Positions 2,689 through 22,162 of a stretch of DNA of 35,171 bases are shown in pieces (position 1 is the stretch's first letter; each line of letters opens with the position of its first letter). Position numbers and translations under genes: made by a program. The notes beneath the pieces are model-generated. The model was not told where the DNA came from. It did not search any database and worked only from the letters and a program-made list of their open reading frames with translations. The stretch is from a virus. Taxonomy: Duplodnaviria > Caudoviricetes. The stretch covers positions 1-35,171 of IMG/VR virus record IMGVR_UViG_3300020042_008651. One strand, written 5' to 3'.

Positions 2689-3057
2689 TTAAAATTCATT
2701 TATTTTTTTTAGTGTATTATTTTCTTTTACAAGTTTAGTAACTACTGCTTGTAGTTCTATCAATTCTTGTTGTACTTTAAATAACTTTCTTGCGTTTATT
2801 TTTTCGTGGTAGTAAAATATGCCAAAGTGATTGTAAATATTCATTAAACGTGAAATAAAACCTTCTAATCTTAATATTTCTTTATTATCTTCTTTTGCTA
2901 TTTTCATTTTTATAAGTTTCTCTTCGTATTTTCCTATTAATGCAAAAAAATCAAATATGATATCAAACTTCTCATCTTCTCTTTTATATGATAATATTTC
3001 TAAATTAAGTAAATAATATTGGTCTAATGTTTCTTTGTATGATTTTTGGTAATCCAT
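2689..3057 (-). CDS. Hypothetical helical protein
   Basis: 122-aa ORF 3 nt downstream of the helicase. Confidence 0.7.
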   Translation of the reverse strand: MDYQKSYKETLDQYYLLNLEILSYKREDEKFDIIFDFFALIGKYEEKLIKMKIAKEDNKEILRLEGFISRLMNIYNHFGIFYYHEKINARKLFKVQQELIELQAVVTKLVKENNTLKKINEF

Positions 3058-3060
3058 AAT

Positions 3061-4032
3061 TTAGAATGGTATGTTAGGTTGGTAAAATGAATCTACTTTC
3101 GCTTTGTTGTTATCTATATTATTGAATGGAGTTGGTATATATCTTTGGTAACCATCAAACTCTTCATAGTAGGCATTTTTTATAAGGTCAAAACCAAGTG
3201 AGAATCTACCTTTGACACCTACTATTTTTGGTTTTGCTTTTCGTATATCCACATCCACAATATTTGATTGGATAAAGTTTCCGTTGTGTTCTATGTAATT
3301 CCTATGGATGCAAATTAGTGATTGAGCCTTAGCATACCACACCGATCCTCCTTCTATCTCATCGGGTCTTGGTGAACGTGGGAATTGTTCACCTTTTTCA
3401 ATGGTCGGATTCCGTGCGTGGCAAACCATAATATTATGGATATTGTGATATTTTGCAAACCTGTTCCACTTAGGTAAAGCATACTTTAAATATTCACTTA
3501 TTAATCCATTACCTTTACCTTTTAAATCGTGGTCCAGGTCATTCCAATTGTCAATTACGGCAAGGTTACAACCATATAATTTCTTTGCCTCTTTTACTAT
3601 CTCAAACCAATTTTCAAATGATATACCTTGCTCATCATTACCTTCAATTACGGTGAAGTATTCTTGAACGAATGCCTTCGCATTATAAAGTTCTTTTTCA
3701 CTTATGTAATTCTTATGTGCTTTGTTCATACTCTTACCCGTAAGGCAATGTATAAGTTCACAATAAATCTCGGCAGCTGTGCCTGTTTCTGGCGAGTATA
3801 CAATAGGTCTCATTTGGTAATTAACAACCATTGAAATTAATAATTGATACATAAATTGTGACTTACCACTTGTCGGATGACCATAGATAATAGTTGTATT
3901 ACCAAGTCTTAAATTATAATGATTCCTTGCACCTTCAAACCCTATAAAATATCCTGCTTTCATACCGTTTTCATACAAGTTCATAAACTCATTGTCTACT
4001 TTATTATCATTTATTTTAAGAATATTTACCAT
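3061..4032 (-). CDS. DnaB-like (SF4/RecA-fold) replicative helicase
   Basis: Walker A GHPTSGKS, YSPE, Walker B VIDNW, HAR and KAK motifs; follows the initiator gene. Confidence 0.8.
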   Translation of the reverse strand: MVNILKINDNKVDNEFMNLYENGMKAGYFIGFEGARNHYNLRLGNTTIIYGHPTSGKSQFMYQLLISMVVNYQMRPIVYSPETGTAAEIYCELIHCLTGKSMNKAHKNYISEKELYNAKAFVQEYFTVIEGNDEQGISFENWFEIVKEAKKLYGCNLAVIDNWNDLDHDLKGKGNGLISEYLKYALPKWNRFAKYHNIHNIMVCHARNPTIEKGEQFPRSPRPDEIEGGSVWYAKAQSLICIHRNYIEHNGNFIQSNIVDVDIRKAKPKIVGVKGRFSLGFDLIKNAYYEEFDGYQRYIPTPFNNIDNNKAKVDSFYQPNIPF

Positions 4033-4607
4033 ATGATTTTGCTCTCCTCTATTTTATTTTCTACCTTATTAAATTTTTTATTATTATTCTCCCAAGTAAT
4101 AAGTCTTTTGTCTACTTCAAAAGTTTTCTCTAAACTCATTTTAGTTTTACCATTAACATCTTTTTCTGACCAATATCTATAAAAAGAATTTAGGATATCT
4201 TTTGAATATTTTTCTTTGTGTTTTGATAACTCTTCTATAAAATCTTTATCTGAACATTTTTTATAATTAAATAAAATATCTTTATCTTTATCTTTTACTT
4301 TATCTGCATTTTTCGTATCGGATTTTATGCGATTGGATACGTTCGCATTCTTTCGCTTCTCCCAAGATGCCAATGCAATCTCCTTATTTTTTAAACTCTT
4401 CTCATTCCATTTTTCCAAATCACGTTTTAGATTTTGTTTAATCGGCTCAAAAACAATTTGAGTAAGTTTATCTATTGGAGTTGGATTAAGGTCATTGATG
4501 TAAGCTAAATAGTGTTTAAATAGCTTTCCTGCTTCTTCATCTGAAAGTTCTTTAACCGTGTGTATAATGTCACAATATAATAGAACTGATTTTTTATTTT
4601 CTGCCAT
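4026..4607 (-). CDS. Putative replication initiator (DUF6291-like N-terminus)
   Basis: SVLLYCD..LSDEEAGKLFK N-terminus, DKDKD linker, FYRYWSE..RLITW C-terminus; lies before the helicase. Confidence 0.65.
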   Translation of the reverse strand: MAENKKSVLLYCDIIHTVKELSDEEAGKLFKHYLAYINDLNPTPIDKLTQIVFEPIKQNLKRDLEKWNEKSLKNKEIALASWEKRKNANVSNRIKSDTKNADKVKDKDKDILFNYKKCSDKDFIEELSKHKEKYSKDILNSFYRYWSEKDVNGKTKMSLEKTFEVDKRLITWENNNKKFNKVENKIEESKIIW

Positions 4608-4623
4608 AGGTACTAAAACGGAA

Positions 4624-4722
4624 AATCCCCAAATCTGGTCGTATCAGAGATGGGGATTGCTTCCTATAATCAATTTAGAAAATTTGAAATAGTATGGTTA
4701 TTGAGATACGACCTTCAATAAC
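4624..4722 (-). ncRNA. Two-hairpin kissing-loop leader upstream of the initiator
   Basis: Stems 4624-4631/4651-4658 and 4697-4704/4715-4722. Loop segments 4637-4645 (ggtcgtatc) and 4705-4713 (gatacgacc) are exact reverse complements. Confidence 0.7.
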
Positions 4723-4742
4723 ACTTGCAATATTAAGTTTGA

Positions 4743-4922
4743 TTATTTAACGACTATTAACTTTTTGTCCACAATCAACTTGTTGAAGAAATCTTTTGTG
4801 TAAGACATACTTTGTAAATAATAATTCTCATCCTCACAAATTAATGTGACCGTATCATATAATGTAAATTTACATTTAAATACCTTTTTGTGTTTTGTGT
4901 CTTTTACTAATTGTATTTTCAT
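4743..4922 (-). CDS. Hypothetical 59-aa protein (below ORF-track cutoff)
   Basis: ATG 4922 lies 1 nt after the upstream stop; MKIQLVKDTKHKKVF...IVVK, TAA at 4743. Confidence 0.6.
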   Translation of the reverse strand: MKIQLVKDTKHKKVFKCKFTLYDTVTLICEDENYYLQSMSYTKDFFNKLIVDKKLIVVK

Positions 4923-4923
4923 T

Positions 4924-5367
4924 TTAGTATAGTATTAAGTTTATTGTGTCTGTAATTCTTTTAAATTTATCGGAGAATCTTTTGTCATATTCTAACAAGT
5001 TTTCTACCGATCTAATTGAGTGAATAATTGTTGTATGGTCTTTACCATATCTATGCCTTTCATTAGGTCTTGAGGTCATATAAAGTAGTCCTATTTCTTG
5101 TAATGAAAGTAATGTGTGCTTTCGTATCAAATACATTGATATTTGTCTTGGTTCTACAAGACTTCTTTTTCTTGTTGGAAGAATTAATTGACTTGGTTCT
5201 ATACCCCATTCAACTGCACAAATTTGGATTATCTTTTGCCCTATTTCATTGTAGCTTAATAAGTCAATATTTGTTTTCATAAAAAGTTTACAAGGAGTGC
5301 CTGTTGACTCTTTTATTTTCTTTTCTGCCTCTTCTATTATTTTACTTATAATTTCTTTACTTTCCAC
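4924..5367 (-). CDS. DnaA domain IV (C-terminal HTH) protein
   Basis: PRQISMYL...SLQEIG...KDHTTIIHSI signature of the DnaA DNA-binding domain; no AAA+ domain. Confidence 0.8.
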   Translation of the reverse strand: MESKEIISKIIEEAEKKIKESTGTPCKLFMKTNIDLLSYNEIGQKIIQICAVEWGIEPSQLILPTRKRSLVEPRQISMYLIRKHTLLSLQEIGLLYMTSRPNERHRYGKDHTTIIHSIRSVENLLEYDKRFSDKFKRITDTINLILY

Positions 5368-20230: not shown

Positions 20231-20839
20231 ATGGAAAACGTAAAATTAAATTTAAGTTCAGTAAAAGTAGGAAACTACAGATTTGAAATCTATGAAGAGG
20301 CTCTACAAGTAGGAGGAGGTATTATTATGAAGTATTTTGCAAAAAAGTTTCTTTTAACTCCTAAAGGTAAGTATCAAAAAGAAAAGTGTTTGTTCTTTTA
20401 TGCTTTTAGAGATGAATCAGTAAGAGATGAGAAAGTGAGCAAAAATATTGACAATATCACTGCCAATTTAATTACTCTTGAGAATGAGAAGGCTCAAAAA
20501 AAAGAGGCTCAAAAAAACCTTGTTAATCCTTTTAAAGTAGGTTCTTTGTTTTATGATTCGTGGGGTTATGACCAAACTAATATTGATTTCTTCCAAGTAG
20601 TTGAAGTTAAACCAAAGTCAGTAGTATTGAGAAAGATTGGTCAAATATTCCACAAGAGTGCAGGTTTTATGTGTGAATATGTTCTTGCTGATGTTGACAA
20701 TTTCATAGGAGAGCCTTTCGCAAGACCATTGAGAGTTAGTAGAGATGGAAAGTCAATTGGAGTGAATGCGGAGATGTCAAGAAGAGGGTTGTTGTTTGAA
20801 TATCACGGTCAGCCTAAGTATCAATCACATTATGCATAA
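20231..20839 (+). CDS. Conserved hypothetical phage protein
   Basis: 202 aa with FKVGSLFYDSWGYDQTNIDFFQVV motif (SH3-like barrel suspected). Confidence 0.8.
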   Translation: MENVKLNLSSVKVGNYRFEIYEEALQVGGGIIMKYFAKKFLLTPKGKYQKEKCLFFYAFRDESVRDEKVSKNIDNITANLITLENEKAQKKEAQKNLVNPFKVGSLFYDSWGYDQTNIDFFQVVEVKPKSVVLRKIGQIFHKSAGFMCEYVLADVDNFIGEPFARPLRVSRDGKSIGVNAEMSRRGLLFEYHGQPKYQSHYA

Positions 20840-21087: not shown

Positions 21088-21258
21088 ATGGATATAATAA
21101 TAGATAATAAACCAGTTGAGATTGAATCTTATGAAAAGGTTCTTACTGAATTAATTAATGGTAGACCACCAGTCAATGAGAATGAAAGAGAAATAGTTGC
21201 TGAATTAGAGCAAATGAAAAAGGAAAATTTTATTCCTTATATTCCTTCTAACCTTTAG
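21088..21258 (+). CDS. 56-aa acidic protein, candidate antitoxin (not in ORF track)
   Basis: MDIIIDNKPVEIESYEKVLTELINGRPPVNENEREIVAELEQMKKENFIPYIPSNL; 12 D/E vs 6 K/R; A-rich leader; 11-nt tail-to-tail overlap with the zeta gene. Confidence 0.7.
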   Translation: MDIIIDNKPVEIESYEKVLTELINGRPPVNENEREIVAELEQMKKENFIPYIPSNL

Positions 21259-22162
21259 ACTTATTTAAAAACTTTTTATAAGCGGTAGGATTATAAATAG
21301 TTTCTTTACCATTAGCTTTACTATATATTAATTTTGGAGTAGTTCCATTATTATCATATAAATGTAATTCATTAAATACATTATTTTTAGATAGCTTAGG
21401 GAATATAGTGGATATTTCTCTATGCATATCTTTAATATATTTAGGAGGTATGTGTCTTCCAGTATCAGCTGCTCTTTGTTTTGCTCTATCTAAAGATGTT
21501 TTAACATCTGTAGTTACATAATGAGCAATTACATTTTTACCCGCATCTCTTTGCATTTTAACTTTGTCTGCCACACTTTGATAACTACCATCTCCAACCG
21601 CATCAATAACCGCATCAAATTTATTATTTGCTGCATTTTTAACTATATCTTTTGAAAGTTTAGAACTTTCCTCGTGTACTTTTGATGCTGCTTTAAAATT
21701 TTTACTCTCAAGCATTTTATTATATTCTGGCAATTCTTTTTTTATTCCATCTGGGTCAATTTTAAGAATACCACTTGGATATGTAACTAATCCAGATGAC
21801 TCTAAAGAACTTTTGCCTGTTGCCGGCGCTCCTCCTAAAAAATAACTTGTTCCTAAATTAGTTGAACCTTTTGACATTTCTTTATCAATTATTTCTTTTT
21901 GAAATGCTACTCTCTCTTCATTAAAATTACCATCTTTATCTGAATATAATTTTAAGGTGTCAATTTCTGGACTTGATAATAATTTATCTACATTTGCTTG
22001 TGCTTCTTTCTGATATTTGGCAGTTATTTCTTGAGGAGATTGTCTCCCTATTTTACCAATATTATTTTTTTCAGAGTCACTTCCTCCTTCTTTAGTTCTA
22101 CCACTTCCTGGACCTCCAAATCTTACAAATCTTATTAATTCTATTGCTTGTTCTCTTTTCAT
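21248..22162 (-). CDS. Zeta-toxin (PezT-like) P-loop kinase with N-terminal GGPGSGR leader
   Basis: GGAPATGKS Walker A, IDPDGIK..LPEY, VHEESS, VIDAVG, R...TGRHIP and LYDN motifs. Confidence 0.85.
   Translation of the reverse strand: MKREQAIELIRFVRFGGPGSGRTKEGGSDSEKNNIGKIGRQSPQEITAKYQKEAQANVDKLLSSPEIDTLKLYSDKDGNFNEERVAFQKEIIDKEMSKGSTNLGTSYFLGGAPATGKSSLESSGLVTYPSGILKIDPDGIKKELPEYNKMLESKNFKAASKVHEESSKLSKDIVKNAANNKFDAVIDAVGDGSYQSVADKVKMQRDAGKNVIAHYVTTDVKTSLDRAKQRAADTGRHIPPKYIKDMHREISTIFPKLSKNNVFNELHLYDNNGTTPKLIYSKANGKETIYNPTAYKKFLNKSKG

Follow-up and report, generated by a model that had tools for sequence, protein, structure and literature searches.

A conserved leader with complementary hairpin loops ahead of phage replication genes

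Several described RNA leaders resemble the one reported here. In the guanidine-IV element (the GGAM-1/mepA motif), a 5' hairpin kisses the loop of a terminator hairpin, and the kiss is proposed to promote read-through (PMC7736828, PMC11611296). In the initiator leaders of plasmids ColIb-P9 (IncI-alpha) and pMU720 (IncB), an upstream stem-loop pairs over a long range, and the ColIb-P9 repZ system depends on three things, namely a leader peptide, a concealed start codon and Inc RNA: translation of the leader peptide frees the pairing partner, the start codon and Shine-Dalgarno sequence lie inside a stem, and the antisense RNA competes (PMC4705826). In phage P4 the CI RNA arises by processing of the leader and acts via seqA and seqC to terminate replication-gene transcription; with Gifsy-1 IsrK it shares premature termination before replication genes, short and read-through forms, and a segment near the promoter whose complement lies in a structured region further down the leader (PMC4825925).

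The leader that we describe has something in common with each of these and belongs to none of the named families; it is an uncatalogued, kissing-loop, attenuator-like RNA element. It lies in a linear virus record of 35,171 bases with a completeness rating of 100%, all of which was analysed and is called the window below; terminase, portal and tape-measure genes mark it as a tailed phage, and the minus strand encodes nearly all of its genes. The leader lies in a gap of 135 nt (4608-4742), bordered by a 59-aa ORF and a 193-aa DUF6291 gene, with genes for ERF, a YqaJ exonuclease, SSB, NinG and a DnaA C-terminal-domain protein upstream. An earlier reading of this DNA from its letters alone, hereafter the sequence-only reading, had called this the only long intergenic gap in the replication module; it is the longest within the recombination-replication block, but another of 113 nt is found at 2576-2688.

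The DUF6291 protein (4026-4607, minus strand; PF19808, E 7e-19) matches a primosomal protein family weakly (phrog_6451, E 4e-5) and has weak fold matches to DnaD-domain (E 0.07) and replisome-organizer (E 0.16) proteins, and one of its homologues is annotated 'replication protein'. From these matches and its position we consider it likely to be a replication initiator or replisome organizer, and we refer to it as the initiator; its model had no match in PDB fold or sequence searches. Its gene's end is overlapped by that of a 323-aa replicative helicase (3061-4032, minus strand; phrog_239 primase/helicase, E 4e-22). Homologues of the DUF6291 protein come mostly from Bacteroidota assemblies and phages, and the host is therefore likely a Bacteroidota bacterium.

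Read along the minus strand, the leader consists of a TAATATTG box, a first hairpin (H1), an AU-rich spacer, a second hairpin (H2) and a U-rich tail before the ATG at 4607, about 115 bases in length. The box (4728-4735) is one mismatch from TAnnTTTG, the Bacteroidota sigma-A -7 box, and the eight close relatives have a perfect TAnnTTTG at the same position. Since this box spans -12 to -5 (PMC9723704), transcription is predicted to start at about 4723, at the foot of H1. H1 (4697-4722, minus strand; arms 4697-4704/4715-4722; -6.2 kcal/mol) has an 8-bp AU-rich stem and a 10-nt loop that holds the 7-nt pairing code GUCGUAU (4706-4712), extendable to 9 nt (4705-4713). The minus-strand spacer (4665-4696) has a conserved core, AAUUUUCYAAA, with a mean pairwise identity of 87% in the close family, against 64% for the loops. 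H2 (4620-4664, minus strand; 8+4-bp stem 4624-4658) is terminator-like, with a 4-bp inner stem, a 2x2 internal loop, an 8-bp GC-rich stem and an optional 4-bp foot, and folds with an energy of -16.5 for the core and -19.8 in full. Its 7-nt loop, AUACGAC (4638-4644, minus strand), complements the H1 code and lies 30-37 nt before the ATG. The U-rich tail, which shares 4608-4625 (minus strand) with the translation-initiation region, is imperfect: whichever register is taken, 8 nt contain 5 U.

Much of this anatomy had been proposed in the sequence-only reading and checks out: both hairpins have the arms and stem that it gave them, the near-consensus -7 box stands just before the first, and the second ends, at 4624, 16 nt before the ATG (12 nt if the 4-bp extension to 4620-4664 is counted). 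Its claim that the loops hold exact 9-nt complements is right as to the match, which is 100% between 4637-4645 and 4705-4713, but not as to the loop: that of H2 has only 7 nt (4644-4638), so the 9-nt match takes in the G-C pair that closes its stem, and the conserved loop-loop core is 7+7 nt. The calculated duplex energy is -13.2 kcal/mol for the 9-bp pairing and -7.0 for the 7-bp core.

Within the window, the match stands out only modestly from chance. A distant inverted match of at least 9 nt arose in 11/500 dinucleotide shuffles of the gap, and in 2/500 when at least 5 G/C were required; the fold z of the transcribed strand is -2.6. In a design-based scan, five of 314 promoter-like sites had a match of at least 7 nt, and only the site at 4735 is intergenic and also has both a strong hairpin and a match rich in G/C. 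A covariance model run across the genome found one copy of the leader and no second. A 213-nt DNA contig (run X4), perhaps not independent of the source sample, equals 4491-4695 without difference and so covers H2 and the spacer, not H1, while DNA contigs of four runs with small shares yielded no variants across H1.

What decides the matter, on the comparative sequence evidence, is covariation. The close family comprises the window and eight relatives, aligned; a DNA-pattern scan for relatives returned 12 matches, of which four were not initiators and were dropped. All 63 cells (63/63) of the 7-bp loop-loop helix are paired across the nine sequences, with compensatory changes at five of the seven positions, two pairs being invariant, and the family uses six different loop codes. 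H1 is 100% paired over the seven pairs tested, three of them compensatory; the inner stem of H2 is 97% paired, with compensation in three of four pairs, and its outer stem is 86% paired, a value that reflects a one-column misregister of the alignment in that stem. The observed values were reached by 0/500 shuffles on four of the five measures and by 13/500 on the remaining one; for the structure as a whole the figure was 0/500, and slid registers were only 30-49% paired.

The design recurs well outside this family. Several searches, including the best 80 of 524 listed homologues, gave 187 loci with at least 200 nt upstream, which reduced to 123 distinct regions in 90 clusters. For each we asked whether the first 30 transcribed bases were complementary over at least 7 nt to the inside of a GC-closed hairpin. 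Among these loci, 21/30 clusters with a perfect TAnnTTTG and such a hairpin were complementary, against a mean of 1.8 and a maximum of 5 in 50 shuffles; with one mismatch in the box, as in the window, 5/11 were. Pairs drawn across clusters matched in 83 of 1640 cases. Under looser rules and with no control, the design was seen in 10 of the remaining 49 clusters (two proximal, eight further upstream) and not in the other 39. Those eight (L021, L107, L122, L126, L149, L169, L009 and L218) have it 285-551 nt before the initiator; because a small gene stands in between in L218, the leader probably marks the head of the operon and not of the initiator gene as such. Initiator homologues in four isolate chromosomes (L118, L131, L135, L140) have no leader within 600 nt.

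The complementarity that the sequence-only reading expected upstream of homologous initiators is thus retained, in 63/63 cells and in 21/30 clusters, and its central idea, a conserved RNA element with loop-loop pairing and its own promoter box ahead of the replication genes, holds. We regard the leader as virtually certain to be real as a conserved element and as very probably regulatory, and the sequence comparisons indicate that the loop-loop pairing is under selection. An ordinary promoter and terminator whose loops match by accident, which the 11/500 gap shuffles might have suggested, has next to no probability. That candidate is refuted by compensatory changes at 5/7 positions without one broken cell and by the recurrence in 21/30 clusters where 1.8 were expected.

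All five cultured Flavobacterium and Cellulophaga phages inspected (5/5, a small number) carry the leader, directly before the initiator in phi13:2 and phi19:3 and before a small gene preceding the initiator in 11b, tooticki6-1 and elemoA. Of these, tooticki6-1 is described as lytic (PMC7077304). The covariance model of the close family recovered, apart from the sequences used to train it, little more than the 11b leader (rough E 0.002); this weak reach explains why sequence models miss the class, which is hard to find in this way because the letters turn over and the pairing is kept. Two contigs of one Flavobacteriaceae MAG, L111 and L112, have near-identical leaders with the codes GGTCGGA and GGTAGGA, and represent either co-resident phages or mis-binning.

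Leader forms were compared in 35 of 41 leaders, those that matched over 6 nt or more (the other six were dropped); some of the 6-nt matches among them may be chance. By a cut-off of our own, the 5' segment lies in a hairpin loop in 18/35, the type found in the window, and the other 17/35, a sister form, have no H1. The properties of H2 in these 35 leaders make a leaky intrinsic terminator the best reading of it. At least 5 T follow the last G-C pair within 8 nt in 29/35, and at least 5 A precede the 5' arm in 13/35. About 50 nt separate the end of H2 from the next ATG in tooticki6-1, too far for H2 to hide a ribosome site. A simple terminator scan called no terminator in the window, where the tail has only 5 U in 8 nt, and the distance from H2 to the ATG (9-36 nt, median 15, in the 35 leaders) fits translational control too.

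We suggest, at about even chances, that the leader is a transcription attenuator, in which a kiss of the H1 loop on the emerging tip of H2 allows read-through into the initiator and helicase genes and so sets the level of their expression. From the position of the promoter box, transcription would start at about 4723 and H1 would fold first. Folding of an intrinsic terminator begins at the closing pair of the stem, next to the loop. The 7-nt tip of H2, on emerging and while the 3' arm of H2 was still to be made, would form 7-10 bp with the H1 loop and so take the closing pair of the short inner stem; the complementarity is present in the sequence, and the timing is computed. In stepwise folding, which considers nested folds only, the 9-bp H1-H2 helix is the minimum-energy structure at 92 and 96 nt, and H2 is from 100 nt on. 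The pairing would thus have only a brief interval in which to form. Delay of H2 would then give read-through; if the H1 loop were missed or already occupied, H2 and the U-rich tail would, by analogy with guanidine-IV, stop transcription at about 110 nt. The reverse direction, in which pairing stabilises the terminated form, could also apply.

The guanidine-IV element shares with this leader the pairing of a 5' hairpin loop with the loop of a terminator hairpin. However, its loops are highly conserved, bind guanidine and precede sugE-type exporters, whereas the phage loops vary freely with compensation (six codes in nine sequences), precede DUF6291 and helicase genes, and have no guanidine-IV match in Rfam. 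A small-molecule pocket is unlikely, and no ligand seems to be needed, because the loop letters vary freely and the duplex is calculated at -13.2 (7-bp core, -7.0) kcal/mol. If the attenuator reading holds, the leader would show the guanidine-IV device, a kiss on the terminator loop, working without a ligand.

The sister form offers what may be a second way of opening H2. An ATG lies near the pairing segment in 14 of its 17 leaders (9.3 expected, a weak enrichment), and in 11 of these 14 an ORF remains open through H2 (3.3 expected), as compared with 0/18 among the hairpin-type leaders, the window included. As ORFs through H2 are confined to leaders without the H1 hairpin, H2 appears, from this distribution, to be opened by either an RNA loop or a ribosome; the role of H1 would pass, in sister-form leaders, to a ribosome translating the leader ORF. 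In eight loci (L010, L018, L019, L109, L124, L148, L184, L214) a sister leader stands about 135 nt before the initiator, with an upstream ORF of 31-51 codons that runs from the pairing segment through the terminator-like hairpin to a stop over the initiator start.

Such ORFs bring to mind the plasmid systems, and the sequence-only reading had inferred an analogous IncI/IncB-like translational switch, in which H2 hinders ribosome loading, H1 or a ribosome on a leader ORF opens it, and an antisense RNA to H1 competes. The phage and plasmid leaders do share pairing of an upstream stem-loop with a sequence close to the initiator start. In favour of such a switch, the foot of H2 in the window reaches to within 12 nt of the ATG, and 8/11 of the sister-form ORFs have their stop at the initiator start or beyond it and overlap the initiator in the -1 frame, much as RLP and repY do (PMC4705826). 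The first codons of the initiator hold a stop in that frame, however, and any -1-frame ORF has to end there. Near-matches to an antisense TAnnTTTG at -59 to -62 occur in 8/9 close-family sequences, perfect in L007; across the 35 leaders, though, 3.9 would be expected to have an antisense TAnnTTTG and one does, and nothing in the window matches it well. The window also lacks a leader ORF, and its start codon lies outside H2, so that by sequence it has none of the three things that ColIb-P9 needs (leader peptide, hidden start codon, Inc RNA); further, the pairing here is with the tip of a hairpin. Both the T-rich tails and the gap of about 50 nt in tooticki6-1 favour termination instead. We therefore regard a translational switch as improbable, and neither the IncI-type mechanism for the window copy nor the antisense RNA proposed with it is borne out. 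The spacer core at 4665-4685 contains the near-consensus antisense TAnnTTTG of the eight close relatives, degraded in the window; it could instead be a nuclease or protein site.

The plasmid-like state that had been hinted at fares no better. The record is indeed that of a phage without an integrase, as had been said (PF00589, 0 matches), but it gave 0 matches to resolvase (PF00239), ParA (PF13614) and HTH_3 repressor (PF01381) models as well. IncI and IncB are plasmid replicons, whereas this is a tailed phage without ParA, and the leader is also found in tooticki6-1, described as lytic. Nothing therefore points to a plasmid state.

Under the attenuator reading an off signal is needed, and the simplest option, a speculative one that we hold with less than even confidence, is a competing H2 tip supplied in trans by earlier terminated leaders, which would accumulate as phage DNA multiplies. 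Such competition is in keeping with how P4 CI and IsrK act. More broadly, it is possible, if doubtful, that Bacteroidota phages count their own genomes in this way, with terminated leader RNAs silencing replication genes by occupying, in trans, the H1 loop or the leader-ORF start of new transcripts. In that case the 7-10-nt code would let co-infecting lytic phages tell self from non-self by RNA alone, and recombination could exchange it. The codes are orthogonal, with matched duplexes at -9 to -15 kcal/mol and most mismatched ones weaker than -6, and distant relatives have many more codes than the six of the close family. The loops within a terminated RNA could pair with each other, in which case it would be inert in trans. 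Diversifying selection on the code was not detected in 18 independent pairs, its rate of change being no higher than that of the rest of the leader (20/265 vs 164/1565, p=0.15).

Action in trans is also the essence of a P4 CI-like scheme, in which H2 would be excised as a stable small RNA, bind H1 loops and silence the replication genes, including those of co-infecting phages with the same code. Logic and target are shared with P4 CI RNA (PMC4825925), a seqA-like upstream segment complementary to the structured RNA is present, the codes are orthogonal, and the conserved AU-rich spacer could serve as a cleavage site. Against this, the window's 7-mer code has just two minus-strand occurrences, at 4712 and 15065, so that no seqC-like second copy lies downstream; the code does not change faster than the leader; the leader is much smaller (about 115 nt) with a terminator-like hairpin in place; Rfam gives no match to C4/CI-type families; and a lytic phage carries the leader. 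We consider this scheme quite unlikely.

The kissing loops of ColE1 RNA I and RNA II, which have a 7-nt loop geometry, are bound by Rop. By analogy, the kissed two-hairpin RNA might be the product itself, either a stable terminated RNA or a shape read by a phage protein that sets termination or translation. Both tips in the window can, from the sequence, form 7-nt loops closed by G-C, and the two invariant kissing pairs of the close family would suit such a role. This seems very unlikely, as 17/35 leaders have no H1 and the leader is not tied to a particular initiator N-terminus. In the mosaic block 2689-5367, the first 60 residues of the window's initiator are identical to those of L002 and L003 (100%), whereas H1, the code, the upstream 59-aa ORF and the helicase follow L004, whose initiator N-terminus is 55% identical over 60 aa; initiator C-termini are of two types among the close relatives. 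Leader and initiator thus seem to recombine independently with no loss of the match between the loops; this speaks against recognition of the code by the initiator.

The Rfam search that had been proposed matched no family: at gathering score the window gave nothing and 14 related loci gave nothing except one tRNA, and below it the window had only two chance miRNA matches (E 5-8). In the openly accessible literature we found no description of the leader and no paper for 'DUF6291'. Supplements 3-6 of PMC10690425 contain no match for DUF6291 or the spacer motif, although part of the leader, such as H2, could be among that study's 10,006 candidates. An uncatalogued RNA control element thus heads the replication genes of many Bacteroidota phages, and its presence in cultured phages of environmental hosts makes it testable now. 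It would offer a handle on the timing of replication in phages without repressor or integrase and, for engineering in Bacteroidota, naturally occurring 7-10-nt switches that are orthogonal to one another.

Elsewhere in the record, a TET-associated glycosyltransferase (PF20691) adjoins a ParB-like protein at 702-1914, a pair that is likely a DNA base-modification cassette. A 304-aa P-loop protein with matches to minor head proteins and polynucleotide kinases (21248-22162) adjoins the head protease gene, and beside it lies a lone plus-strand ORF (20231-20839).
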